This document shows positions 410 to 26,842 of a DNA stretch of 33,156 nt, one piece after another. The DNA is from Collodictyon triciliatum (taxonomy: Eukaryota). The stretch covers positions 1 to 33,156 of the forward strand of contig JBHJMP010000902.1 of the NCBI GenBank assembly GCA_043381765.1, written 5' to 3'. The notes under the pieces are model-generated. The model made no database searches and had not been told where the DNA came from. It was given only the letters and a program-made list of their open reading frames with translations. Numbering within the stretch: the first letter of the stretch is position 1; the number at the start of each line of letters is the position of its first letter. The translations under genes and the position numbers were made by a program.

Positions 410-3400
410 ACCCACGGAAAGGCGCCCGCACACAACCCGAATCACAATAGCCCTTGGACACATCACAGCTCACCGAATGAATCACCCAATGGACATTTTT
501 TTGTTGCTTACAGTTACACCGCCCCTGGTGAGTTATGGGAATTTATAAATCAGGGCCAAGTAGAAGCAAGGTCTTCCATCAAATATTCTGAAAGTTTAGA
601 AACAGCGATTGTTCGTGTATCAAGGCCTGGAGGTCAGCATAGAAATGTGAGATTTTACTCTAGTTATTACCATGTCCAAGTTATTTTCAAGATATTAAAT
701 AAAGTACCACATATATACAAGAGCTATATTGCAGCTGAACATGAAAACAATATTACATGACAAACACTTTAAGCATAACATCAAAAATACGAAGCAACCG
801 TATTATTATAGTAATATGATATTCTTTTGATTCAGTGCAATATTCTTCATTGTAGTTGAAACATAATTTAGACAATCAATTAATAACACAAGCCACAATT
901 ACAATCATGTATCTGTCTCCACATGCATTTACATTTGAATTCCATTATAAACAGGGAAAATTCATATCTGGCTTAAGTGAGACCGAAGGAATAATAATTG
1001 GCCGCTGCTCATACACTGATGAATCTCTCTTGGAAAAGTGGTTTTCATCAACATTTAATTCAAAATTCAAAATACTCTATTCAAATATAGCAGAAAATAT
1101 AATAGTAATGAGCTCGAGCCTTACAACTATCGACTTTATGATATCCAAAAAAGATTTTTTAGCCCAAGAAAGGGTAATTGCTAAATCATTAGCATGTATT
1201 GTAATATACAGTTGATTACCCCTTATTATCACTATGACTAAAAGGGATTTTCGTTGAATTAGAATCACAATATACAATGAAAATTCTTAATATAAACTAA
1301 ATGATTCAAATTCACTCTAATATTCACTGTTTTATCGTTAAAGTTTGTATTCGAGACGGCCCTGCCATCCCAAGCAAAAAGCTACATATTTTGTGTTCAC
1401 AAATCAATCAAAGCTACAAATTTTGAGGCAGAGTTGGAAACCTTTTCTCAAAGATACAAGCTATCTCTGTCTTCTTCAAAGAGTTTCTATAATCTTGAGA
1501 TAGGAGAAACGGAAATATTTGTGAAATCCCTAGTATGGCCTCTCCACAAACAATTTGATCACCATGACTTTCACGCAAACGTAATGGTCACTAAATATTT
1601 CCACATACATAAAATGAATATGTTAATGACCAGTGTCTTTGAATCCATCCGATTATATTAATTCTTTTTTCTTTTATCAATCTAAAGTTATTGTTTTATG
1701 GTATCAAATAATATTATTGATTTATACTGTATACCTCTTTAATTTCTTTAATTCTTCTTACAGGTTGAAATAAAAGAAATGCCCATTTCTGTCTCGATGA
1801 CAGCTGAACCGAAGCAAAAGCCCCTTGTACCGGAAGGGTCCTTCATGAAGAAAGATTATACCGATTCAAATGACGAAAAATTTGATCAGAAGGAGGTTTG
1901 CAATCAAGAAATCATATTTGATCTTGCAAAATCAGTCAGCTCGAGTTTATTTGAATCAGAAAACCTAGTGTTACTGAGCTTTGAGGGTATCCGAGACAAT
2001 GAGTATTTTGATTTGAGCTCTGTGCTTGATATAAGGCAAAAGGATTATAAAGAATTAAAAGACAGCGACCTAACAAGGCGCTTGTTTTTCATCTCAGTCG
2101 AGGCACTCAAAAGAATTAGTAATGTAGGACCGGTCAGATACCAATCCTTGCTCATCCACACTATTACTAGTATTCCCGATGAAGGGACCTGGTATATTCC
2201 ATACTGGTGCCCTTCTAACTTGACAAACTTGCGCGAAATAATGTCTACCATCGGTCATGTTCATTGTTTTTTCCATCAAAATATCTGCGTAGCAGTTTTA
2301 AAAACAAAACAAAATCCAAAAGTTCATCTGGGGAAGCATATATCAGTTTATTTGGCAAATCACCAACTGCGTCTTGAAAAGTGCTATATCTTTCGAGTTT
2401 TTCTGGTCAACACGCCTCTGGATTGCACAGTAGAGTCAATTAAAAAATTATTCCCCAGGCATAATTTTCAGCATGTGATTCAATATCACACAGATGTTTG
2501 GTGTTTATACTTTCAAACACCTGACATCGCCAACGACTTTATGGTCAGTAATTCAGAGGGTAAAGGTCCCGGTTCCGAATCACATTTTATACATAGATTC
2601 TTCTCACATGAACTTCCTGAGCATCAAACGAGGCGTTTTCGAGACCACATGCCCCTTTTTGTGCACATGGTACCTCAAGACTGCGCCAAAGATATCGAAA
2701 GCGGCCTTATATCAAAAAAATTGTCTTACTCTTTCTCAAAATACTACGCAAACGAGTCCTTATTTTTTGCCCTCGTAGTCCCAGACAACGCAGCCAGCAA
2801 TTTAATATCTGACGGAGCAATATCCTTCCAGGGGAAGAATTATCCTGTATCAACCCGGGTCCAGGTTTTTTTTTCGATTAGGGGATTAGGATCTGACTAT
2901 GGTACCCCCGACTCTGTCTCTCATCTGCTCGAAAAGCATACAATTTTTTCGAAAAGCCCATTCAATGTGGAAATGAATCCAAACGGGGGCATGTTACTGG
3001 TGACCTCATTCCCATTGTACAAAGTTGTTGAGAAAAACTTGTGCATTGAAATCGGAGGAGTGACGATTCAATTCAGTCCATACACGTCTGCCTTACAAGT
3101 ATTTGACGAAGCGTGGTATAAAGGTGGAAATCTGGTCAGGTCATTTGATCAATATGAACCAACAGACTCTATCTTTAAGAAAAAATGGGACGCAGTATCT
3201 TGGCTTGATGCCTGGCAGAATTGTGAGCAATCATCCTCAAGAAAAAGCACTACTTTAAATAGGTCCAGTTTCGTGCAAACAGCTCAAAATCTCCACTATA
3301 CTGCCATGCTCCTTACAGGAAAGACATGCCGGGATGGATTTTATGTTAACACAAAGGGAAAAAAAGTGGACGTACCCACGCCAAGGGACTATCAGATACA

Positions 3401-6400
3401 TATGTACCCTGTTCCTTTCGAATCTCAACCAAACTCAGCTCCAGCAAAGATTGAGTGCAAAAGCTCAGATCCATTTTCCGAGGCCTCTATATTGATTCAA
3501 AAGGCATCCCGACCAGCTGTTCTATGGTCTGTGGAAGAACATCAACCACAACTTGGCCTTGAAAACGAACTCGTTCGTAGGTCTAATTATAGTATGATTA
3601 CTGAACCTCATGTATTTGGATTGAGTACCGGCTTTAAATATCCTTTGCATTCATTCAGCTTGTGGACAGCAAATCTGACAATTTTTCGGACCCAAGAACT
3701 ACTTGGGTATGATTTCCTAGAAACCCCCATCCAGTGTCTAGTTGCATGCATACCAACGAATGCGAAAGCTGTAGAGGAGAAAAGTCATAGCAGTCGCAGC
3801 TTCATTGAAAACACAAAGATAAAGATTGAAACATTCATTCGTGTTGCTCTCTCGATGAAATGTGACTCTCTAGTACTCACGCCCTTTGGTATTGCAAACG
3901 AAGGATATGACCAACCCACTGTGGCATATATTGTGAAGGACCTGCTTGCTGTGTACGCAAAGTATTTTAAACAAATAACCTTTGCGCACGAGACACACCC
4001 ACAAGAAAAGGTAAATTCTGACGGAAAATATACAATGGAGGTGTATGAATCAATCTTTCATCGGAGTCGATTTGACTATCCAACCTATTTGCCTTCAACA
4101 AATAGTAATATTTGCCCAGATGGTGCATACTGTAAAAATAATTCCAGTGCTCATGAAGAAATGGGGCACCCTATCATATGCAAGTATTTTGGGAATTGCA
4201 ACGAATTAAATAATGAGGTACATAGAACACTGTTTCGACATAGCACTAACTGCCGAGAAAGGGGACTTTGCAAAAAAGTAAATGATGCAGATCATATGTC
4301 AACATTCACCCACCCTCCTATGTGCAAGGAAAAAGGCATGTGTGGCCGTGATGATATCGAGCACCTCGATTCCTATCTTCATGTTCCAATTTGTACCCAT
4401 GGAAGTAATTGCACCAAGCGCAACATTCCCGGACATGTTGAGGAATACCGGCACATTGTTGCTGTATGCTCATGGGGAACCTTTTGTCGATTGTACAACG
4501 ACCCAAAGCACATGGCGAGTGAAAAGCATCCTTTCAAGTCCGTGTGTGAAGAGACTCCTCTCTGTCAAAAAACAGACCCCTCACACATGTATGCGTTTTC
4601 GCATCTCTGTAGCTGGGGGAACAATTGCAGGCTTTTGGGTGACAAGGACCACACGTCGAACTTTATTCACATGTTACTGCCGCAGTGCAGAGATGGTGCT
4701 AAATGCCAAAAGATTCACGAACATGAGCATGGATCACAGTTTGCACATCCAGGAGTACAGACACTCCGAAAAACGTGCCAGTTCGGATTCCTGTGCCGAA
4801 AGATAAAAGAAATGGAGCACATATCAAAGTTCTCCCATCTTGAAGTGACCCTCCCTGTGTGTCCCAGCAAGATGTTAAATGTAGAAATTAATTTTTTCAA
4901 AAATCAGACCGACTCTTTACAAAGACTTAATTCGCATGCAAACGGAAGGCTTCATATTCCACAAGACATCATTGACTACATTCGCAATTTGCAACCTGTC
5001 CACCGCTGCCGCTTCCCTATATTTCAATCTGTCATCACGCACGGGACAGTGATGTCTCTTGAGTCGATGGAAAGTTTAAGCGACCCTACGCAGATTGCCA
5101 AAGAGGCAATAAACCACGCGATGATTCGAAGATTGATAGAGTATCGCCCAGGAGAAGCGCGTCATGTTTATGAATCAAGAAGAAAATGGGTGACAGATTA
5201 TGTCCCCAACTCCATTTCATATGAAATGCGAAAGCACGCGCCCAATGTTAATGTGTCCTCAGACCCTGTACTTCGAGATTTGAAGCTCAAGAGCGATGTC
5301 ATTTTAAGCATTTCTGCCTCCAGTGGAATCTTAGCAACTGAGTTGGAACTGATCAACTCTGTCATCGCTAACGTACATTCTGCTTGTGTTGAATTAAGTA
5401 GAAATAAAGCAGGAATCCAGTATCAAGTCGATCAAATCATGGGGACAAATCGACATGTATTTAGTATCCTCGGACCGCATACCGTAAGACGAATTTTTTT
5501 ATTTCTTTTTTTATCTCTAACGAGATACATGAAAGTAATACAAATGTGAAAAATGTCTCCTAAAAAGAAAGAGAGAAAATATATCAGTATGATAGAATAA
5601 TTAATTTTTTAAGAAATCAATATTCATTAATTGCTTTTCCCCTTGAAGGGAAAAAAATGTGGAGGACTCTTGTGTATAATTTTTTTTAACCATGATTACT
5701 AAATGTATTCCATTTTTCCATTTTTTTTTTTTTTTTTTACCTACAGGGATTTTATTATGGCCATATTGCAATTATTTTCAAGAAAGAGATTCTAAATCAC
5801 CCGGATACAAACTTCACATCTATGGCAGCGACATCCTTTCACAACGCCACTGTTTCCCAAAGGCCTTGGTTATGTGTCCGCGACTTAACCTCGAAAGGTC
5901 TCTTTGATGTCAACAAGCATCACATCTCTACGCCAGATTGGGCTGTATGTCTGGCTGGGCAAATGGTTGCATTCTTTCGCTCCAAGGGCGTGAAGATTGA
6001 CAAGCTCGAAGATTTCATAGCTGCCTGGATTTCTGTTGATTCTCATATGACAGTCGAGTGCCACCTCCCGTCCATGATTCCTTTGTCATATATTGATAAA
6101 ATCATCATGCCTAAGGTAATTACTTGATTTCATAGATTCAAAATGCATTTATCATAATGATATGATTATTCTTTTGTGTTCTCCTAATCACTCTAAATTT
6201 ATTATCATGTTAATTTATAATTCCTATTATTACACCTTCTTTTTTTGCCTTCCTGTTAATATTTGTATACACCTAGTGTAGCTATGTATTGTTTACGCAT
6301 TGTACCACTCACTCGGGTTAATTAATCTATGCATTATCATGAAAGGACTATTGGGAGAAATCATCATCTGATTTCAAAACCAAATTCAAAGGCTGCTTCC

Positions 6401-7656
6401 CCGACTCCACCAAAATTCTTGCCCTTACCGATAGCTCTATCGGCACCGATGAAAATCCAAATACAGACTGCATTGCAGAAATTATAGCCATGATTATGAT
6501 TCACATCAAAATGACGCACCACCTTACAGGAATGTCTATGACCCTAGACGAGCCAGACATCCCACTTCTCCTCCCATGCCGCATGCCGGAGGCAGGAAGA
6601 GGGCACATTTACTTCCGTGCGTGCGGCTCAAAGTTTTATTTGTATTTGTCGTCTACTCGCAAAGGCAACACGCTTACTGGAAACATCTTTACCATCTATA
6701 TTAAAATCGGAGCTGGCGGGTTTGCTTGCATCGCAAAAGGATTTCAAACACACGCTAAAAACACAAAGTCAAAGGCCGCCACAACGTCGCAATTCTTTGC
6801 ACAAAACTTGAACCCGATGATACCCAACGGATTCTACATCAAAATATCGGATGGGCAGCTGCAGCTGTCTCATCACATGTCTGCATTTTACTATAATCGC
6901 AACTCGATGAGCCTCCAAGACAGCAACCTGAACTCGGTTGTTTACATCGCTGTTGCACCAGGGAAATTGCCTGTCACATTCCTTGATGTGCGTGTGTTGC
7001 GCAGAGCAGACCATGAAATGCCCGCGCCCGACATGTCGGCATCGCAAAGGACTTTGGAACGCTCGCCGTCCACAGAAGGCAGCTCTTCGTCATCAAAGAC
7101 ACCCCCTTCATCCGCGAGATTGTCCGCCCCGACCCCATCTAGGTCGTCTTCGTCACAAATATCACCAAAGTCAGACCGCAGCCCACCTCGGCACAACACA
7201 CAGCAGGAGGAAAAGGCAGGTGCATCCTCGGATATTCCTTCGAGAAGCCTCACCAGATGCAGGCATGACTTGTCGTGCGAAATGTTCCACGACCCGGGCC
7301 ACGCTTTAAAGTATGCACACAGCATTCTGCCCATGTGCCGCTACGCAGCGTCGTGCAAAAACTACTTCAACAAACCGGAGAGCGATGCTCATCTGCAGAA
7401 ATTCTCGCACCCTTGTTCGTTTGGGACCAGATGCCGGTACCTCAAAGACCAGAGTAGCAACCATTGCACCCTTTACTACCACGTCCCACGTCAAATGTGC
7501 CCGGAGGATGCAAAGTGCTCCAGAAAGATAGACCATGCCCACCGCTCCCAATTCAGCCATACGGGTCTGGCCGATTTTATGTATCCCTGCTTATACAAGC
7601 TTGAATGTAGAAGTCAAAACGACGCAGAGCACGCGACAAAATACTATCATGCTTAG
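2..7656 (+). CDS. Giant multidomain protein, 5'-partial, at least 2,199 aa: Pro/His/Gln repeat, RRM-like modules, degenerate microbial-type PARG macrodomain, 10 PBZ-like fingers, putative ART domain, beta-rich domain, Ser-rich linker, 5 PBZ-like fingers
   Basis: Six exons (<2-646, 856-1173, 1344-1580, 1764-5483, 5747-6115, 6346-7656) join through five GT..AG introns, all phase 0, into one stop-free frame. This unites ORFs 116, 856, 1434, 1779, 5822 and 6490. Motifs: PAVL...LENELVRRS...IFR...LVLTPFG...FKQITFA; repeated C-x5-C-x6/11-H-x4/5-H; VHRC..SVITHGTVMS; HVFSILGPHT|GFYYG; VECHLPSMIPLSYIDKII. Confidence 0.8.
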
Positions 7657-10451: not shown

Positions 10452-12335
10452 TTAGCGCTTGCTTTCAAGAGCGCGGTTGATGGTGAACTCGTAGAGGAAT
10501 CCGCCCAGACAACCCCCAAAGAGCGGGCCGAAGATGTAGATCCAGAAGCCCCCGTTTGGTCCAGGAATAGCGATCTAAATGATGATAATAATGATAATGA
10601 TGATGATGATAATGATGATGATGATGATGATGATAATGGCGATGATGATAATGATGATGATGATGATGATGATGATGATAATGGCGATGATGATGATGGT
10701 GATGATGAAAGTAGTGACAATGAAAGTAATGATGAAAGGGACAATCAACCTGTCCCCAACCGGCGATAGCAGCAACAATACGAGGCCCAAAGTCACGAGC
10801 GGGATTCCAGCCGGCCTGTGTCAGTGGGGCGTAAATGCTAATCAGCGCGGCCACGGTCATCCCCACCATGTAAGGAACATAGTCTCCATTGGAGATGACT
10901 GTGGATGGGAAGGCAAAGAAGATGGCGTGAGTTGCTGGTATCGTGTACTTCTATTTCTTGTCTCACACATTCTCATTTGGCATTCTATGTTTGGGGGCTG
11001 TGCAGGACAAACTTTTGTTGCGTCGATCTGTCAGAGCAAAGATCATAAAGACAAGGATGGCAGTGCCCCAGGCCTCGATGCAGAATCCTCCAAAGACGCT
11101 GTAAGGGATTCATAAGTGAGTTGTGTGGAGATATTGCGGCGAGGATGAGTTGAAAGGGCCACTTCATGAGTTTGTCGTAGTCGGGGGTGCCGTCGTCAAA
11201 GGAAGGGTTGGGGAAGTATTCTCCAAAAATCATGGCTGTGCGGACAGATTCATCCGAACCGCGCTCGATATCAAACTTCCTGGAGAATAAGAATACACCA
11301 TAGCTCAGAAAATACCAATGACGGCACAGTAAATCACACCAGAATTTAAGAGAAATCCATGAAATAAAATAAACGAATTGAAACAACCAAACCAAAAATA
11401 AACATAATTGAAAACAAACAGAAGCACATTGTAATAAATTGCTTATGAAGCTGCAACCACCCAGATATTGCGCATATGATTCGGTTGAATAAAATACAAA
11501 GGGCCTATTCATACTTTTCGTGGTGTTCAATAAAGTTGGAATAGATGACGTAGTTGGAAAGACCGCCGATGAGGCCACCGAGAAGCTGGGCTGTCTGTTG
11601 TAATTGAGTCCAAGCATAACAAATTTGAGAGAAAAACAAAGTACATGGCTGCGCATATATGTGTAAGGAATATATATATATATATTGCTTACAACCCCAC
11701 AACAATCCTTATTATCATGTCGCATAATTAAGAGCAAACCCAGTAGGCTGGGAGCTTATCCTTTGAAAACTCTGTGGGGCGGTAGATAGCCATGGCCAAG
11801 GAAACCGCAGGGTTGAGATGACCGCCAGAGATTGACCCGGTAAAATGCACAGCAAGAGCAACGCCGAGACCCCAGACAATGGCAACCTGCATGCGCCATA
11901 CGAGTCTGAAAGTGATCGTCACAGTATAATATTCAAAAGAAAAGAGAAAAAAGAGAAAAAAAGAGAAAAAAAGAGAAAAAAAGAGAAAAAAAGAGAAAAG
12001 AGAGAAAAAAAGAAAAAGAAAAAGAAAAAGAAAAAGAAAAAGAAAAAGAAAAAGAAAAAGAAAAAGAAAAAGAAAAAGAAAAAGAAAAAGAAAAAGAAAA
12101 GAGAGAAAAGAAAAAGAACCTGCCACAGGCCCGACTGCGCGCTCATAAGTACGGCTGTGCAGACCGATCCGCCGCCAGTAAGGACGATGAAGAGTGTGCC
12201 AAGAAACTCTGCGACGCACTGCCACCACAGCGGAGGAAGCCCGAGATACATTCGGCCGAGTCGGGTGTCCTGGCGAACAAGTCGGTGCGCAACGCTGCGC
12301 TCCTCGTAAAAGTCGTCCACTTCGGGGCTTGACAT
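10452..12335 (-). CDS. MIP-family aquaglyceroporin (GlpF-like)
   Basis: Spliced exons give AEFLGT, WQVAIVWGLGV, SGGHLNPAVS, AQLLGG, IEAWGTAILVF, APLTQAGWNPARDFGPR...AGWG and FWIYIFGPLFGG, with TAA at 10452-10454. There are two NPA boxes, the second followed by RD (glyceroporin signature). Confidence 0.92.
10579..10736. repeat. Imperfect (ATG/ATA)n microsatellite in the last aquaglyceroporin intron
   Basis: Direct inspection. It lies between the GWGQ|GT and AG|IAIPGP junctions. Confidence 0.95.
11935..12118. repeat. (AAAAAAGAGA)n plus (AAAAAG)n microsatellite in aquaglyceroporin intron 1
   Basis: Direct inspection. Confidence 0.95.
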
Positions 12336-12391
12336 GCGATCGACTGCGCTTTCTGGTTTTTTCCAATGTTTTTTTCTATTTATTATTCTTA

Positions 12392-13611: not shown

Positions 13612-16472
13612 TCAGGACAGATTCTCGTCTCTGCTGCTAGAACTTTCTGTCTTTTTCTGGTGTTGCATCGACGAGAAGAGTGGACGTTGTGTTGGATGAA
13701 CCGTTCTCGGGTCGACTAGTGGATTCAACGTTTTCGATTGTTATTATTATTATTAAAAAAAATTTATAAAAAGAAAGCCGAGAGTATAAAGAGTAAAAGA
13801 AAAGTAAATGTGACATCAGAGTCTCACCATGAAATGAGTAGACATGATTCGAATGCGAACTGAGCCATCCATTCCCATCGCCGAGATAGGCCAAAACAGA
13901 CTCTGAAGGAGTCTCGGGAAAATGTTTGCTGGTCTCTGAATATGCAAATCCAGATTGGTGTGCATCACCCGACGACAGCACATTTTCGACTGGTTTGGCG
14001 ATTGTTGCATACGCTGTTGGCTCCTTTTCTTTCCCAGTTTCATCTGCGATACCCATCGTTCTGCATACCATCATAGCTCTGGTGCCTGCCACGAACATTA
14101 AATGATTAACGGCCACTGTTGTATACACACAAATGTAGATTAAAGACATAAATTGTTGCCAAAGTAAAGATTAAGACATCTGCTGTGGCTACTAGACGTA
14201 TAATACTTACGTCTTCGAACCAGAACTTTCTTATGTGAATATGCATACATGGGCTCAGTAAAGCATGTTGCCAAGGCCTTGGTTGGTGCGCTGTCTTCAA
14301 TTAGTGTAACAAGCACACAAAATTCTCTTTCTTGGTGACGGGTGGACGGCTCCGATATTGTTAGTCCTGAGAAAGTGGAGATGCCTGTCTTATCAACACG
14401 GATTATTCTCGAGCCTCCAAATATGCGGTCGGAGCCGTCGAATGGATAGGGTTCCGTCCCGGTTAGCGGGCCAGGTGCATAATATAAATCTGAGCGAATT
14501 GCAAATCTACGGTAATCATATGCCCCATCAAAGCAGTGTACCGTAACTATAAACCCAAAGTTTCTAGGAATCAGGTTTATGAAATATAGGAAATAATAAT
14601 GCGTTAGTTGAAAAAAAAATGTTAAATATATTTGAATTGCTCTGTCTACCAGAATTCAATCCCACAGAGCGTATAGATATTCTTTTCTTCTGATATACAT
14701 TCAAATGGCCATGAAAAAAAATATTGTACTTGGATGAACATTGACCTACCTAACTTCCCGAGTGGTCCTTGTACGAACTTCTCTGGGCGGCTGTGCTGTT
14801 ATTTCTAATCCAAACTTGGATTGGCCAGAAAAAGGAGGCGCCAAAGTGAAATTGATTTCATTGACACTTTGAGAAGTCTCCAGTTGCGACAGAATAGTTC
14901 CCTGTGATTGAGGGCGTGAGTATGATGTTGACACCTCAGACATCATATACACGGGACTATGCTTTGCCGCCTGAGAGTTAGGCGTAGATGGAGACTTCTT
15001 ATCCACTGGGGAACTTGCTTTTGGATTTGCCAGGCTCTGCCCTTCTTGGTCTAGTTCAGATAGGTGACTTTTTGGCGCAATCTCTTGGACGCCAGCGTGA
15101 GTATGAAACGAGACGGGCGGATGAGTTGCTTGAGAATTTTCCACAGGGGATATTCCAGCAACAATATAGTCGTGCTCTTCATGCGCCCCATTCTCAATGT
15201 GGTTGGTTGGAGAAAAAGAATCAAATAAAAGTTGTTCAGTATATCCCTCTGGCTGGTAATACACCTGGCCTTCGAACGAGACAGCTTTTTCCAAGATGAG
15301 CTCGTCCTCCTCTTCCCTTTTCAGCATGAATGGCGGATGCTCCTCGGATTGCCTTGGCTTCATAACGGGATGGTTTTGATTGGGCATTGGTTGGAACAAC
15401 GGCGAAGCACTGTCGAATCCAAAGGACAGAATGCGTGTGGGGAACGCAAGAAGTTCCTTTGGGATGGAGATCTCGTCTTCCAAGTGAAAGTGTGCACGCA
15501 TCAACGGAGATAATAGTCGGTCGATTCTAAATGCATCTGGGTTGACGATTTGATCCTTGTGACACGAGGGGCATTTTTGACAGTCTGGAGATGATTTGCA
15601 CAGACATTCCCAGCAGAACGGATGCCCACATGACAGAATTACAGGATTTTGAAAAGCATGTCCACAAAGAGGGCAGCCGTTAGGTCTTCCAAGAACAGGC
15701 TCGTTGGTCACATGCATAAATAATTGGCTGACGATATCCTCGGCCTGTGAGCAAAACATATTTTCTTGATAATGAATAAATAGATAGCAGCCAAATAGTT
15801 CACTATCCACACAAAATCATATTAAAATATGCATATATAACAACCATTTCTAGATCAGCGCAATTAATTGGATGACACAAAGAGAGAATCCAAGTGCAAC
15901 CAACCACCAATTATTTTTTAAAAGTAAAAATATTAGTCGAAGTATGAAAACAAAATAAAGCAGACCCGCTGAATCATCTCGTAGAGTTGCGGAGAGCAAT
16001 AAAACGGCTGAATGAGCAATATCTCCTGTGGATGAAGAACCTCGTAGTCTTGGATCTGCTTGTTGCGCTTCTTTATAATCTTGACCAGGGCGATATAGTT
16101 CAGGACGGCATATTTGCGCAGATGGTCGAGCGTCTCCACAAACTGGAAGATGGGCAGCAGCAGATCTTGGGCAAAGCCAAAGCCGCTCACCTGCAGCTGC
16201 GCCTCAATCGCTTCCATCTTCCGCTGGCACTCGCCCTCGATCACAAAGTAAAACTGGTTCACCTTTGTAAGCTCAGCGTGCAGCTGTGTCATAAATAGTT
16301 GATGAATCAGCTGGTCGGCTGCGCGGGTCGAAAGCGAGGACGAGCTTGTTGCTACGGCCTGGCGGAAAGGCTCGACCGCCCCAGAGAGCGACTTCTTGAG
16401 GGACTTGTAGTTGACATAGAACGCCTCCCACTCCCGCTTCCCCTCACGCTTCAGATGTTTGCCAAACTTCAT
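13612..16472 (-). CDS. SPX-domain, C3HC4 RING protein with a C-terminal putative Ig-fold (velvet/Rel/STAT/CudA-like) DNA-binding domain
   Basis: Exons 16472-15966, 15744-14750, 14563-14211, 14085-13828 and a less certain last exon ending at TGA 13612. SPX: MKFGKHL, YVNYKSLKK, LNYIALVKIIKKRNK. RING at 15675-15562: CPLC-x11-CGHPFCWEC-x10-CPSC. Exon 3 is absent from the ORF track but is open and in phase. Confidence 0.85.
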
Positions 16473-16507
16473 CCTGGACGGTAATATGGTCACAAAAAAA
16501 TTAAGTG

Positions 16508-16660
16508 AAAAATTAAAAATTAAAAATTAAAAATTAAAAATTAAAAATTAAAAATTAAAAAGAAAAAGAAAAAGAAAAAGAAAAAGAAAAAGAAAAGGAA
16601 AAGGAAAAAGAAAGAGAAGAAAAAGGAAGAGAAGAAAAAGGAAAAAGAAAGAGAAAAGTA
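16508..16660. repeat. (AAAATT)n followed by (AAAAAG)n just upstream of the SPX gene ATG
   Basis: Direct inspection. Confidence 0.9.
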
Positions 16661-18212: not shown

Positions 18213-19040
18213 NNNNNNNNNNNNNNNNNNNNNNNNNNNNNNNNNNNNNNNNNNNNNNNNNNNNNNNNNNNNNNNNNNNNNNNNNNNNNNNNNNNNNNNN
18301 NNNNNNNNNNNNNNNNNNNNNNNNNNNNNNNNNNNNNNNNNNNNNNNNNNNNNNNNNNNNNNNNNNNNNNNNNNNNNNNNNNNNNNNNNNNNNNNNNNNN
18401 NNNNNNNNNNNNNNNNNNNNNNNNNNNNNNNNNNNNNNNNNNNNNNNNNNNNNNNNNNNNNNNNNNNNNNNNNNNNNNNNNNNNNNNNNNNNNNNNNNNN
18501 NNNNNNNNNNNNNNNNNNNNNNNNNNNNNNNNNNNNNNNNNNNNNNNNNNNNNNNNNNNNNNNNNNNNNNNNNNNNNNNNNNNNNNNNNNNNNNNNNNNN
18601 NNNNNNNNNNNNNNNNNNNNNNNNNNNNNNNNNNNNNNNNNNNNNNNNNNNNNNNNNNNNNNNNNNNNNNNNNNNNNNNNNNNNNNNNNNNNNNNNNNNN
18701 NNNNNNNNNNNNNNNNNNNNNNNNNNNNNNNNNNNNNNNNNNNNNNNNNNNNNNNNNNNNNNNNNNNNNNNNNNNNNNNNNNNNNNNNNNNNNNNNNNNN
18801 NNNNNNNNNNNNNNNNNNNNNNNNNNNNNNNNNNNNNNNNNNNNNNNNNNNNNNNNNNNNNNNNNNNNNNNNNNNNNNNNNNNNNNNNNNNNNNNNNNNN
18901 NNNNNNNNNNNNNNNNNNNNNNNNNNNNNNNNNNNNNNNNNNNNNNNNNNNNNNNNNNNNNNNNNNNNNNNNNNNNNNNNNNNNNNNNNNNNNNNNNNNN
19001 NNNNNNNNNNNNNNNNNNNNNNNNNNNNNNNNNNNNNNNN
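18213..19040. other. Assembly gap (N run)
   Basis: Run of N next to an (AAAAAC)n microsatellite. Confidence 1.
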
Positions 19041-19521: not shown

Positions 19522-22381
<2,860 letters not shown>

Positions 22382-23370: not shown

Positions 23371-26300
23371 ATGGCCAGCCAGTCTTCAATCACCTCGCCA
23401 AGGCTGATTCCCGTCGGGCTGTACGAGCGCTTCTTCGACTACTTTGAGAAGCAGCAGCCTTTGCTCAATGATGGATCTGCAGATTTTGGCTCTATCGAGT
23501 CCCCTGAGGACAGTACGCTTCATTATAGTAGAGTCAATCGTCGGCGTGCGATAAATCGGGCCACGATGCTTCGCAATTGGTTCCTTTTGTTACTTTTATT
23601 TTATTTTTTTTATTCTTCCTTTCATTTCATTTTCACCCCCATTAAACATAATTCTGTGTTCAAGAGAATCTCTTTTGGTGAACTAATTATCCATCATTCG
23701 CGTAAGCAATGAACGAACAGTGAATGGAAGGATCAATAATAAATACTTTGAGGTTAATTAGATTTATAAAGTTTATTAATGTAATATCATTTTTGATAAA
23801 TATGTAGGTGCTCTGTCAACCCTGCAATCCCAGCCGACTTTTGGACGCCTTTGCTCGAGAATGGAAAAGCAGGGATCGGAATAGCACTATTTTTTAATTT
23901 CGTAAAGGATTACATGGTCGGATGGTTATTTTTTTCTTGTGAGTAATTTATTTTCTAACAAAATAGAAATAATGCAACATTTGAGTGAAATCCTACATAT
24001 TTTTGTTAAATTTTTCTACGACTATGTTTTTATTAAAAAAATTCATTACAATACAGTGTATGCTTTCTATGCTTTGGTCGAATATTCCAACGGAGAAGGG
24101 CCTTCTTTGAATGACACAAAGTATGACTCTTTGGAAGAAAATCCACCTGAGTTTATGAAAATATCTATATCAAATCTGGGAACCAAACGCGTTAGCCTTG
24201 GACTAATGATTACAGATTTTATTTTCTCTATCCTGTTTATGGCTTTTGTTTACTACCAGAAGAATAGAGAGGTTTGACCATGTCACATAATTTTCTTTGT
24301 TAATACAAAATGATTATAAGTAATAAAAATTATAAAAAAAGGATGACCATCACTAACTTTATCCACATAATTTTAGCACAAGAAAATCGTTAACCTTCAA
24401 ATGAATCGTGTCTCTGCGTCAGACTATTCTTTTCAGATGACCGGTCTTCCGAAATTACCTTACAAGGCCGCTGAATTGACAGATTTTTTCTCAGTGTAAG
24501 TTGAATATACATCAAGAGACACAACCCAGAATTGATAAGTCATCTACGGATATGTGAATGTTATTCATGAGTAATTAGATATACAAACACTAATTATAAT
24601 TAATGTATCTAATTGTCTCCTGTGTGTAATAACTGAAGTTATGGTTCTGTCTGCAATGTTAAAATCATCGTCGATTGTACAACCTTGGTTGATATTCGTC
24701 GAGAGCAGAAAAGTGCAAATTCTGCTCTTGAGCACGCGGTTGCAGCTGAATCCAACAGAAACACGAAGCCTTGGTATTGGGATTTCGTTTACAAGTATGA
24801 CGAAGAAGATCAGCCATCCCGTGTTTTATCGTGCCTACAATATGTTGGTCTCTTTAGAGACTCAAAATATTGGGGACGGAGAATTGAAATCCTCGACAAG
24901 GAATATAACGAAGCCATTCAAAAACCGTAAGCCTATTATGGATTATGTCTTTTTTAAAACAAACCCTGGGAGGTCAATTTGCTGTTTTAATTGTATCCTC
25001 CTTATTAGCTCTCGTTTATTTAACCTAGCTCTACCTATTATTGATAAACGATATATTTTAATCATTGCAGTTCTCAACCCACGGGACGTGCTTTTATCAC
25101 ATTCGATTCTGTGGATGCCACAATCGATTGTAAGGAGGTATACATGAAGAACTCGATTGTGAGGGCGTGTCAGTTGATTTGGTGCTATTCTGGCCCACCG
25201 CGCTTTCGATACAGGTATTACTTTGATGATCTATATGTGCTTTTATATTCTACTCAGCAATATTTAAGCAGCTTTGTTTTTCTCCACCTGGTTTACTTTT
25301 TCAAATATTTCTCAACCATATAGAACAATCAATATCAACGACACACCGGAGCCTCAGGATATCCTCTGGGAAAATCTGGGTTCAATCAGCTTCAAAAAGT
25401 TTTTATACAAGTGCCGTAGTGCCTTTGTGGCCATGGTTTTTGTTATTACAGGAGCTTTGTTGGTGACATCAATTCTCGATGAAGACGTGGCCATCTCCAC
25501 AGGGAACTCTGTGCTTGTTGCCTTCATTATTGCCTCCACGAACTTCGCCATTAATCGTTCATTATACTTTCTTGTTCCTCACGAGCGCCACTATTCCCTC
25601 ACTGGTACACAAACAGGGCTATGCATGAAAATCATTTACTTTTTATTGGCCAATAGCTTACTGACCATCGTCCTGGCTGGACTGATTTCATCCAAAGATG
25701 ATGACAGGAACGAGGACAAGTTTGACCTGGAGTATTTTTGGAAAACACCGGAATACGTCGAAGTTTATAGTTTGGTTATGATTGCTGCATCTGTCGGTCC
25801 AATTCTACGTCGAATTATGCTTCCTGCAGTCCGAAGTTTGCGAGCTAGATTCCTGGACAAAAACTGCTTCACTGAGGCCGATTTCGAAGATATCTACGCA
25901 AACCCCCCTTTCGACCTGGCTGAAGCCTACGCTTATGCTTTCCATTTGATGTTTATGGCGTTGATTCTCAGTCCGGTGATTCCAATTGTCCTCATAATTT
26001 GCTTCTTGGCATTTGTAGTTCACTACTTTGTCTGTCGTTACATGATTCTGCGCGTTAACGGACCGCCTCCACCATATGAAATGAAGCTCGCTTTGCACTT
26101 GGAACGATTTGGGCCGATGTCAGTGGCTCTACACATGCTTGTCTCTTGTATTTGCTTCAGTCTCCAAGGCGTGGACTACAAAGATAGTCTTATTGCGGCT
26201 GCTCTAGAAGGGGACTTTAAGGGGAAGATTTTCTCTCACGATTCTGATGACGAGGATGACTTTCTGTTTTTCTACTGGATTGCCACAGCTGTTGTTTTGC

Positions 26301-26842
26301 TGACCAACGTTTTGATTCCCTTGACACCGCTTCGTTCTATTCTTCAGGATATTTCATTCTTTAGACGCGAGCAGTTTGTTGTGTCAGAAAAGCTGGCAGA
26401 AATCAATCCTTTGTCCTTCAACCAAGCCATCACCTCTCGTTACTTTGTTCCGTACCAACCACCGATTTCTCAGGTTCAGATGATTCATCTCATCCCATAT
26501 TCTCTAGTTCTGCATTCTTATTTCCCTTGCCGTAATAAATATTTAGGAGGACTCGCCCTTGGATAAATCCCGCAAGGTTGATGAATACATCGAACAAGTG
26601 GACCGCCGTCTCATGGTATATACCTTCTTGACAATTGAAAAATAGAAAAGAAGAAAAAAAAGTACGTTGCATCCTCCAAATACTTCTACTTATTGCTGTC
26701 CACTGGTTTATATTTATTATTTTCCTGTCGAATCTAGGGAGACGTGCTTTGGAACCCTGCTTATTTGGGTGAAAATCAAGAAAATGGAAAAGCTGGCTCG
26801 TCTAACAGGCCGAGCAAACGTGTCTCGCTTATCGGGAAATGA
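23371..26842 (+). CDS. OSCA/TMEM63 (CSC1-like) multi-pass ion channel
   Basis: Motifs GIGIALFFNFVK, SASDYSFQMTGLP, PEPQDILWENLG, ERHYSLT, PPFDLAEAYA and RYMILRV..PPPY, plus many hydrophobic helices in 25323-26470. Two short terminal exons end at TGA 26840-26842. Confidence 0.75.

Follow-up and report, generated by a model that had tools for sequence, protein, structure and literature searches.

We analysed a window of 33,156 nucleotides (nt) from Collodictyon triciliatum (Eukaryota; GenBank assembly GCA_043381765.1, contig JBHJMP010000902.1, positions 1 to 33,156 of the forward strand); all coordinates below are those of this window. On its + strand lies a eukaryotic, intron-bearing gene for a protein of ~1800 residues, in which a decayed PARG, about ten PBZ fingers, an ADP-ribosyltransferase (ART)-like domain, a lectin-like beta-sandwich and five PBZ fingers follow one another. 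The ART-like domain is the subject of this report. A first-pass annotation of the window had proposed a DarT/DUF4433-like ART domain at 4980..6115, split by an intron. Our results confirm a domain there, with wider limits. It belongs to a eukaryotic family, so far unannotated, that very likely has the ART fold, and it is of catalytic type: probably an active ART, which may act on protein or on nucleic acid.

The gene is read from three open reading frames (ORFs) of the + strand, which are in order 1752-5549 (1265 codons), 5696-6127 and 6343-7656. The first long coding exon seen (1752..5483) is defined by the ORF 1752..5549, by collinearity with the homologs P0001-P0004 and by a donor site (ACC/GTAAGA) at 5483/5484. 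It codes for the N-terminal part of the protein, the PARG remnant, the array of PBZ-like fingers and the ART-like domain as far as intron 1. Its first methionine lies close to the exon start, and there may be further exons upstream; the upstream ORFs 2-760, 856-1215 and 1305-1661 showed no BLASTP similarity to family members.

Intron 1 (5484..5746, + strand) has 263 nt bounded by GT..AG, begins with GTAAGA, ends with a long T tract and CAG, and has a G+C content of 24%, compared with 44% in the preceding exon. Read-through of it leads to a stop at 5549. The end of exon 1, used as a query, retrieved homologs at E-values from 4.7e-23 to 5.3e-13 (4 of 257 candidates), and four homologs are collinear over the junction, where they read H-V-F-S-I-L-G-P-H-T-G-H-Y-Y-G-D. 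A hidden Markov model (HMM) of the family matched the exon-1 ORF at its positions 8-191 (E-value 2.7e-46) and the ORF 5696..6127 at positions 191-320 (E-value 4.5e-49). Since the two flanking ORFs match the family profile and meet at position 191, with no gap and no duplication at the join, the intron, placed at these same coordinates by the first-pass annotation, is real.

A second intron follows, which splice sites and collinear homologs support as they do the first. Four short RNA contigs from three freshwater or lake metatranscriptome studies fall on 4600-6900, three of them at 100% identity, and one of the latter joins 6095-6112 to 6343-6511, its short side having just 18 letters. Because AAG stands on both sides of the join, the cut can be placed at 6115/6346, and the contig fits the removal of an intron of 230 nt (intron 2, 6116..6345, + strand, GT..AG, 27% G+C). 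Intron 2 severs the last helix of the domain (6346..6429 on the + strand, at the start of exon 3, corresponding to helix 326-339 of the structural model described below), so the domain is wider than first noted: it spans about 4911-6429, and the HMM envelope covers residues 1054-1395 of the protein spliced by script. The spliced domain has its best BLASTP matches in transcripts of Diphylleia rotans (35-37% identity), the closest of them with 35.7% identity over 342 residues (E-value 2.6e-67). The signal lies far beyond chance.

Conserved residues and predicted fold

The four motif blocks listed in the first-pass annotation were all found in frame on the + strand at the places it gave, the His (5001) and the Glu (6056) included. 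The N-terminal half of the domain (4911..5483, + strand), delimited by the HMM envelope, the secondary structure of the homolog model and conservation, contains in order beta-1 with the His (codon 5001-5003, in V-H-R-C) and the following Arg, a helix, beta-2 (S-V-I-T-H-G-T-V-M-S), a helical insert of ~110 residues and beta-3 (H-V-F-S-I-L-G, Phe codon 5460-5462). Six residues separate V-H-R-C from the beta-2 motif, one more than had been claimed. The motif D-x3-G-T-x2-H-V-F-S-I-L-G-P-H-T closes exon 1 at 5483, and G-F-Y-Y-G-H-I-A-I-I-F starts the next exon at 5747. The C-terminal half (5747..6115, + strand), delimited by the match of ORF 5696..6127 to the family HMM and by conservation, comprises G-F-Y-Y-G (Tyr 5756-5758), beta-4 (I-A-I-I-F), H-P-D (His 5798-5800), R-P-W, a helical region and D-S-H...V-E-C-H-L-P. 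The last of these begins the motif V-E-C-H-L-P-S-M-I-P-L-S-Y-I-D-K-I-I, which closes this half, with the Glu codon at 6056-6058 and a His codon at 6062-6064.

Conservation was counted in 161 family proteins (216 domain rows) aligned to the family HMM, with residues numbered as in the homolog P0016. The triad typical of ARTs (a His in beta-1, an aromatic residue in a middle strand, a Glu in a late strand) is conserved in the family: His44 is kept in 111 of 117 rows, Phe183 in 139 of 147, Tyr194 in 129 of 143 and Glu299 in 132 of 138, and the window copy has all four, at 5001, 5460, 5756 and 6056, respectively. The retention of the His and the Glu, claimed from the window copy alone, thus extends to the family. 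Other well kept residues are Arg45 (102/117), Ser62 (117/126), Asp173 (140/144), Thr178 (136/147), Gly195 (141/143), His208 (141/147), His295 (128/137), His301 (129/138) and Pro303 (135/138), the last two forming with Glu299 the conserved late-strand motif of the family, E-x-H-L-P. The window copy retains 44 of the 46 columns with at least 70% conservation, the two changes being Tyr16 to His and Ile54 to Val. In a GC-rich sub-group (P0087, P0098 and P0064) the Glu is replaced by Gln (W-Q-C-H-L-P) or His (W-H-C-H-L-P), and the rest of the motif is kept; its members are probably inactive or chemically different paralogs.

The fold was modelled on P0016, a homolog of 366 residues that consists almost only of the ART-like domain, using AlphaFold2 with an alignment of 44 rows. 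The model has a mean predicted local distance difference test score (pLDDT) of 93.2 and a predicted template modelling score of 0.89. It starts with a strand at 42-46 (P-I-H-R-C), a helix at 48-57 and a strand at 59-61, followed by the helical insert at 63-176; then come strands at 182-186, 197-201 and 212-215, a mostly helical stretch, and strands at 298-302 (F-E-A-H-L), 305-307 and 311-317. The split beta-sheet core of ARTs, which the first-pass annotation had regarded as decisive, is therefore present in the homolog model in its usual order, that is, beta1-helix-beta2, the helical insert and at least four further strands.

Two structure searches were made with this model. Foldseek against the PDB placed SopF with NAD first (E-value 2.9e-4, probability 1.00), followed by DarT1, DarTG, the DarT proteins of M. 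tuberculosis and Thermus, CopC and OspC3 at E-values of 0.2-1. VIA-align, an independent search of 48,161 chains of which we considered the best 50 rows, also placed SopF first (Z 11.6), then Thermus DarT (Z 10.8), yeast Tpt1 and M. tuberculosis DarT (both Z 10.4), Thermosipho DarTG (Z 10.3), CopC (Z 10.2), E. coli DarT1 (Z 10.1) and OspC3 (Z 9.9 and 9.4). DarT and Tpt1, the comparisons suggested at first pass, thus both match the homolog model at Z above 10. All nine rows with Z of at least 9.4 are ARTs, and the tenth (Z 7.9) is a designed helical protein aligned on the insert. The ART fold is well supported, since the nine top rows are all ARTs and the score then drops to 7.9, and it is very likely that the domain has it. 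Going by the offsets of the aligned ranges, Glu299 of the model would lie roughly 3-5 residues away from the position of the catalytic Glu in SopF, CopC and OspC3, and His44 within 4 residues of that of His137 in CopC; these values come from arithmetic on range ends and not from residue alignments.

In a library of viral structures the model had no match at E-values up to 0.001. The best, weak look-alikes at E-values from 1.5e-3 to 0.03, were uncharacterised proteins of phages and giant viruses; they include proteins of Bodo saltans virus, invertebrate iridescent virus 6 (422L), a betabaculovirus (ORF32), Yasminevirus, Pithovirus and Tupanvirus, which may be further unannotated proteins with the ART fold.

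Family spread and domain company

Among 1.84 billion proteins clustered at 50% identity, a profile of the domain found 419 representative clusters at E-values up to 1e-3, 324 at 1e-10 and 145 at 1e-30. Named sources include the bdelloid rotifers Rotaria, Adineta vaga and Didymodactylos, and also Diphylleia rotans (with several paralogs), Naegleria fowleri, Arcella intermedia, Eukaryota sp. GEM-RC1 and one marine protist transcriptome. The members are named in databases as "uncharacterized", "microbial-type PARG catalytic domain-containing" or "PBZ-type domain-containing", and none of the names refers to the ART-like domain. Pfam gave no match over the domain, either in the window pieces (E-values up to 1) or in the four homologs found first and another 25 members. 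Full-text searches of the literature turned up no description of the domain; surveys of ARTs may already name the family. A search with P0016 that detects close relatives only gave 40 pattern matches from prokaryote genomes and 2 from viral contigs, none of which was confirmed as a relative. In the ESM Atlas, cosine similarities of 0.88-0.91 were obtained to OspC, DUF3841, DUF3626 and giant-virus DUFs, which at that level are leads only. Exon 1 alone, compared with solved structures, returned pyrrolysyl-tRNA synthetase at E-values of 0.45-0.69, which we regard as noise. In our view it should be classed as a new and separate family of a known fold. It is large and eukaryotic, its domain of ~330 residues has two inserts of its own, and the set of domains that accompany it is likewise its own.

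Upstream of the ART-like domain, the window protein carries a degenerate microbial-type PARG (macro-fold) remnant at 3309..3986 (+ strand), which aligns with the PF10021 region of the homologs. The loop that contains G-G-G...Q-E-E-N in the homologs is deleted or changed here, and PF10021 had no match in this region at E-values up to 1, while the homologs P0001 and P0003 score 77 and 70 bits; to judge by these differences, the window copy may have lost the eraser activity. Next, at 4113..4838 (+ strand), come about nine or ten zinc fingers of the PBZ-like type (C-x5-C-x6-9-H-x5-H), counted by regular expression, and five more lie at the C-terminus (7258..7656, + strand, with the stop codon at 7654-7656), counted in the same way and aligned with those ends of the homologs that bear PBZ. 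The window has 14 pattern matches and, at the C-terminal fingers, a weak PF10283 (PBZ) score of 12.6 bits against a cut-off of 22.7, which the homologs, carriers of PF10283 at the first array, do pass. The family profile also matches the tandem PBZ of human APLF (E-value 1.5e-5).

Directly after the ART-like domain there is a concanavalin-A-like or galectin-like beta-sandwich (6523..7015, + strand), predicted by an AlphaFold2 model of window 6346-7050 (pLDDT 85.1). Its best VIA-align matches are CBM66 (Z 13.1), a levanase C-domain (13.0), the thrombospondin C-terminal domain (12.3) and galectins (11-12). Rotifer and Diphylleia homologs conserve this domain, for which Pfam has no model; from its modelled fold it may be a target-binding or sugar-binding module.

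In the 25 other members scanned, PF10021 was found in 9, PBZ in 6 and VWA in two, WWE, Macro, RING, a GBP GTPase, a protein kinase and eIF-3c_N in one member each, and no Pfam domain in 11. The fusions to a guanylate-binding-protein (GBP) GTPase, a protein kinase, VWA and WWE occur in P0104, P0114, P0149, P0089 and P0061, and this company hints at innate-immunity-like or stress signalling. A protein of this family is already in print. The A. vaga "bacterial-type PARG with PBZ repeats", described in PMC4245714 (Perina et al. 2014, citing Slade et al. 2011), belongs to the same protein family as the A. vaga protein P0007 (2297 residues), in which we find PF10021, PBZ and the ART-like domain at 1332-1689; the passages of PMC4245714 on this protein speak of PARG and PBZ fingers, with no mention there of the ART-like domain or the beta-sandwich.

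Relation to known ADP-ribosyltransferases

We consider it rather likely that the ART-like domain is catalytically active, in view of its predicted fold and its conserved triad, and several results weigh against this. The modelled homolog is only ~33% identical to the window protein, which was not itself the source of the model. None of the four RNA contigs lies over intron 1, and all of them leave 5139-6062 uncovered and are hence uninformative on its splicing. No ART family stood among the 25 of 41 matched Pfam families that were listed for the 44 members scanned (E-values up to 10); PADLOC, NCBIfam and PHROGs gave no meaningful match over the domain in 10 proteins; and two family profiles compared with solved structures at E-values up to 10 found no solved ART, the first having 0 matches and the second matching only the APLF PBZ and two designed helical proteins. 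Profile comparison with hhalign gave a probability of 0.16-0.49% (about 0.2-0.5%) against an OspC profile, built from OspC-family sequences of at least 420 residues among 93 matches, and of 0.10-0.17% against 121 DarT2 sequences, whether the family was taken whole or minus the insert, the DarT2 profile being shallow (Neff 2.5). Finally, 6 of 138 rows have His, Gln or Ala instead of the Glu and the six rows of 117 that lack the beta-1 His have Tyr, so some paralogs are probably inactive; and the PARG part is decayed in the window protein, which would also allow a non-catalytic scaffold.

Salmonella SopF is an ARF-activated ART that modifies the V-ATPase subunit ATP6V0C. Its structure (PDB 7DN8/7DN9) is the top match of both searches, with 206 residues aligned by VIA-align (root-mean-square deviation 4.3), although it differs from the family in being a secreted bacterial effector of ~370 residues with 12-13% identity and no sequence-level signal. 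The arginine ADP-riboxanases OspC3 and CopC (PF06128; PDB 7WR4/7WR5, 7WZS and 7XN4) match the fold at Z 9.4-10.2 over 185-207 residues, and share with the family a late-strand E-x-H, which is conserved in the latter as Glu299 and His301: a Shigella OspC ORF reads L-E-Y-H-I-P at 325-330, compared with V-E-C-H-L-P in the window. OspC proteins have ankyrin repeats and need calmodulin, and differ from the family in both. For CopC, PMC9239266 gives an H137-F183-E325 triad, with E325/H327 essential, likewise E326/H328 in OspC3. In SopF, the catalytic Glu 325 binds the N-ribose according to PMC11937434, in which the primer for E325A reads, in our own translation, Y-I-[E to A]-A-H-I; SopF would accordingly also have the Glu followed by x-His, as in the ART-like family. 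In its way of working the family would be most like the H-[Y/F]-E enzymes that have an E-x-H strand. The domain might then be, as a special case of an active ART, an ADP-riboxanase of the OspC/CopC type or a protein ART of the SopF type that modifies Arg or Gln side chains of a partner protein, perhaps with the help of a cofactor protein. The common E-x-H-[IL]-P motif speaks for this, as do the first rank of SopF in both searches, the longer alignments of SopF, CopC and OspC3 (194-207 residues, against 161-181 for the DarT chains) and, as a weak lead, the value of 0.91 for the OspC family in the language-model search. However, hhalign found next to no link to OspC, PF06128 is absent from the Pfam matches listed, and SopF, DarT and Tpt1 are close to tied, their Z scores differing by no more than about 1.5. 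The deamination step would call for an additional Asp as well. We hold so specific an assignment to be doubtful.

DarT/DUF4433 (PF14487), the DNA ADP-ribosyltransferase toxin of DarTG, was the family named in the first-pass annotation, and the resemblance holds for the fold, with DarT structures at Z 10.1-10.8 over 161-181 residues, but not for membership by sequence. A true relative of DarT would be a eukaryotic DUF4433-type enzyme acting on bases of single-stranded DNA, with a fused macro-type PARG in the role of DarG. Apart from the fold, the order of motifs is similar: in both, beta-1 carries H-R, a strand with aromatic residues comes later, and I/L-P/S-L..I-I stands after the Glu strand, DarT of E. 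coli (the reference from strain E2348/69, which PF14487 matches at 181 bits) reading I-V-H-R-D...L-D-N-G-L, V-P-F-Y-F and Q-A-E-A-L...I-S-L-L-D-G-I-I. A writer also goes together with a macro-fold eraser in both: in DarTG the two are separate or fused (a bacterial DarT-macro fusion exists, 7OMU), and here they stand in cis. PBZ fingers are typical of DNA-damage proteins in the account of them given in PMC4245714. On the other hand, Glu 170 of E. coli DarT stands in Q-A-E-A-L with no His two residues on, so that DarT has E-x-L where the family has E-x-H; DarT has ~210 residues compared with ~330 and two inserts; and the family, unlike DarT, is eukaryotic with introns. PF14487 (cut-off 22.5 bits) had no match in the window pieces at E-values up to 1 and is missing from the Pfam families listed for the 44 members, no PADLOC model matches the domain, hhalign stayed at 0.1-0.2% against the shallow DarT2 profile, and SopF scored at least as high as DarT in both structure searches. 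We think this relationship improbable, and by sequence the family is neither DarT nor OspC. Even less probable, to the point of being nearly dismissed, is a Tpt1/KptA-like 2'-phosphotransferase acting on RNA ends. Yeast Tpt1 matches at Z 10.4 (108 of 120 residues aligned) and mouse Tpt1 at Z 6.7, but the alignment covers the NAD-binding lobe only, no Tpt1 family is among the Pfam matches listed, and the family keeps the Glu of the third motif; PMC12522546 describes the Tpt1 clade as H-H-h and assigns families with a conserved Glu to the H-Y-E clade. As for PARPs, PF00644 is not among the Pfam matches listed, and PARP2 appeared in Foldseek at E-values of 2.9-3.2 only and is not among the 50 VIA-align rows.

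The main rival to an active ART is a pseudo-enzyme or reader, in which the ART fold is kept and perhaps binds NAD+, ADP-ribose or poly(ADP-ribose) with no transfer, as a recognition or scaffold module next to the PBZ fingers. The decay of the PARG, whose signature loop the window protein is already without, speaks for it, as do the few paralogs that lack the Glu; no sequence link to an active ART was found in the searches above, and another eukaryotic ART-like family, LRRC9, has been argued to be a pseudo-enzyme (PMC7955679). Against it stands the strict conservation of the polar residues expected to be catalytic (His 95%, Glu 96%, the His of E-x-H 93% and Asp173 97%), which spans rotifers, Diphylleia and Naegleria and includes the window copy, where all these residues are kept. 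We consider a pseudo-enzyme possible and the less likely of the two. If the domain is an active ART, DNA or RNA is no likelier to be the acceptor than a protein side chain: the nucleic-acid target suggested at first pass is no better supported than a protein, since SopF matches no less well than DarT and the E-x-H motif suggests the protein-modifying SopF/OspC kind.

Proposed role and surroundings of the gene

In an active enzyme, NAD+ would sit where the split sheet opens into a cleft between its two halves, held by the beta-1 His (5001) and by the aromatic residues of H-V-F-S-I-L-G and F-Y-Y-G. The Glu (6056) of E-x-H-L-P would polarise the nicotinamide ribose, and ADP-ribose would pass to the acceptor. 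Recruitment to poly(ADP-ribose) that is already present could fall to the PBZ fingers, and choice of the target perhaps to the beta-sandwich. A more far-reaching and speculative proposal, which we would not ourselves expect to hold in full, is that the family forms a eukaryotic clade of E-x-H ARTs, the cellular counterpart of SopF and OspC/CopC, in which a writer, readers (PBZ, WWE) and an eraser (microbial-type PARG or macro) are joined in single giant proteins. With such proteins, protists and bdelloid rotifers might run an ADP-ribose circuit complete in itself, which would serve innate defence or the tolerance of DNA damage by laying down a non-PARP mark, possibly on Gln/Arg or nucleic acid, at sites tagged with poly(ADP-ribose).

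To our knowledge, eukaryotic ART families are few beyond PARPs, ecto-ARTs, Tpt1 and a small number of predicted pseudo-enzymes. The family described here is large (419 clusters at 50% identity), well conserved and spread over distant eukaryotic lineages, has no model in the libraries searched, and shares polypeptides with known readers and erasers of ADP-ribose. If active, it would add a new writer to eukaryotic ADP-ribose signalling and give the SopF and OspC effectors a cellular relative. Bdelloid rotifers are noted for extreme DNA-damage tolerance, and an active family would there be a testable candidate for non-canonical ADP-ribosylation. The case also illustrates that intron-split domains of protist genomes escape ORF-based annotation.

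The rest of the window holds ORFs with ordinary eukaryotic domains, namely a MIP aquaporin (11728-12375, - strand), a protein with SPX and a RING finger (14746-16526, - strand), an alpha/beta hydrolase (21116-21565, + strand) and RSN1_7TM, an OSCA/TMEM63-type channel (25268-26566, + strand), with no apparent functional tie to the ART-like domain. Positions 18213-19040 are an assembly gap of 828 N, which accounts for a bin of 8.5% G+C in the composition profile. At the left end of the window, the + strand of 2-760 encodes a Pro/His/Gln-rich unit of ~75 residues in two near-exact copies, followed by a short structured-looking stretch.

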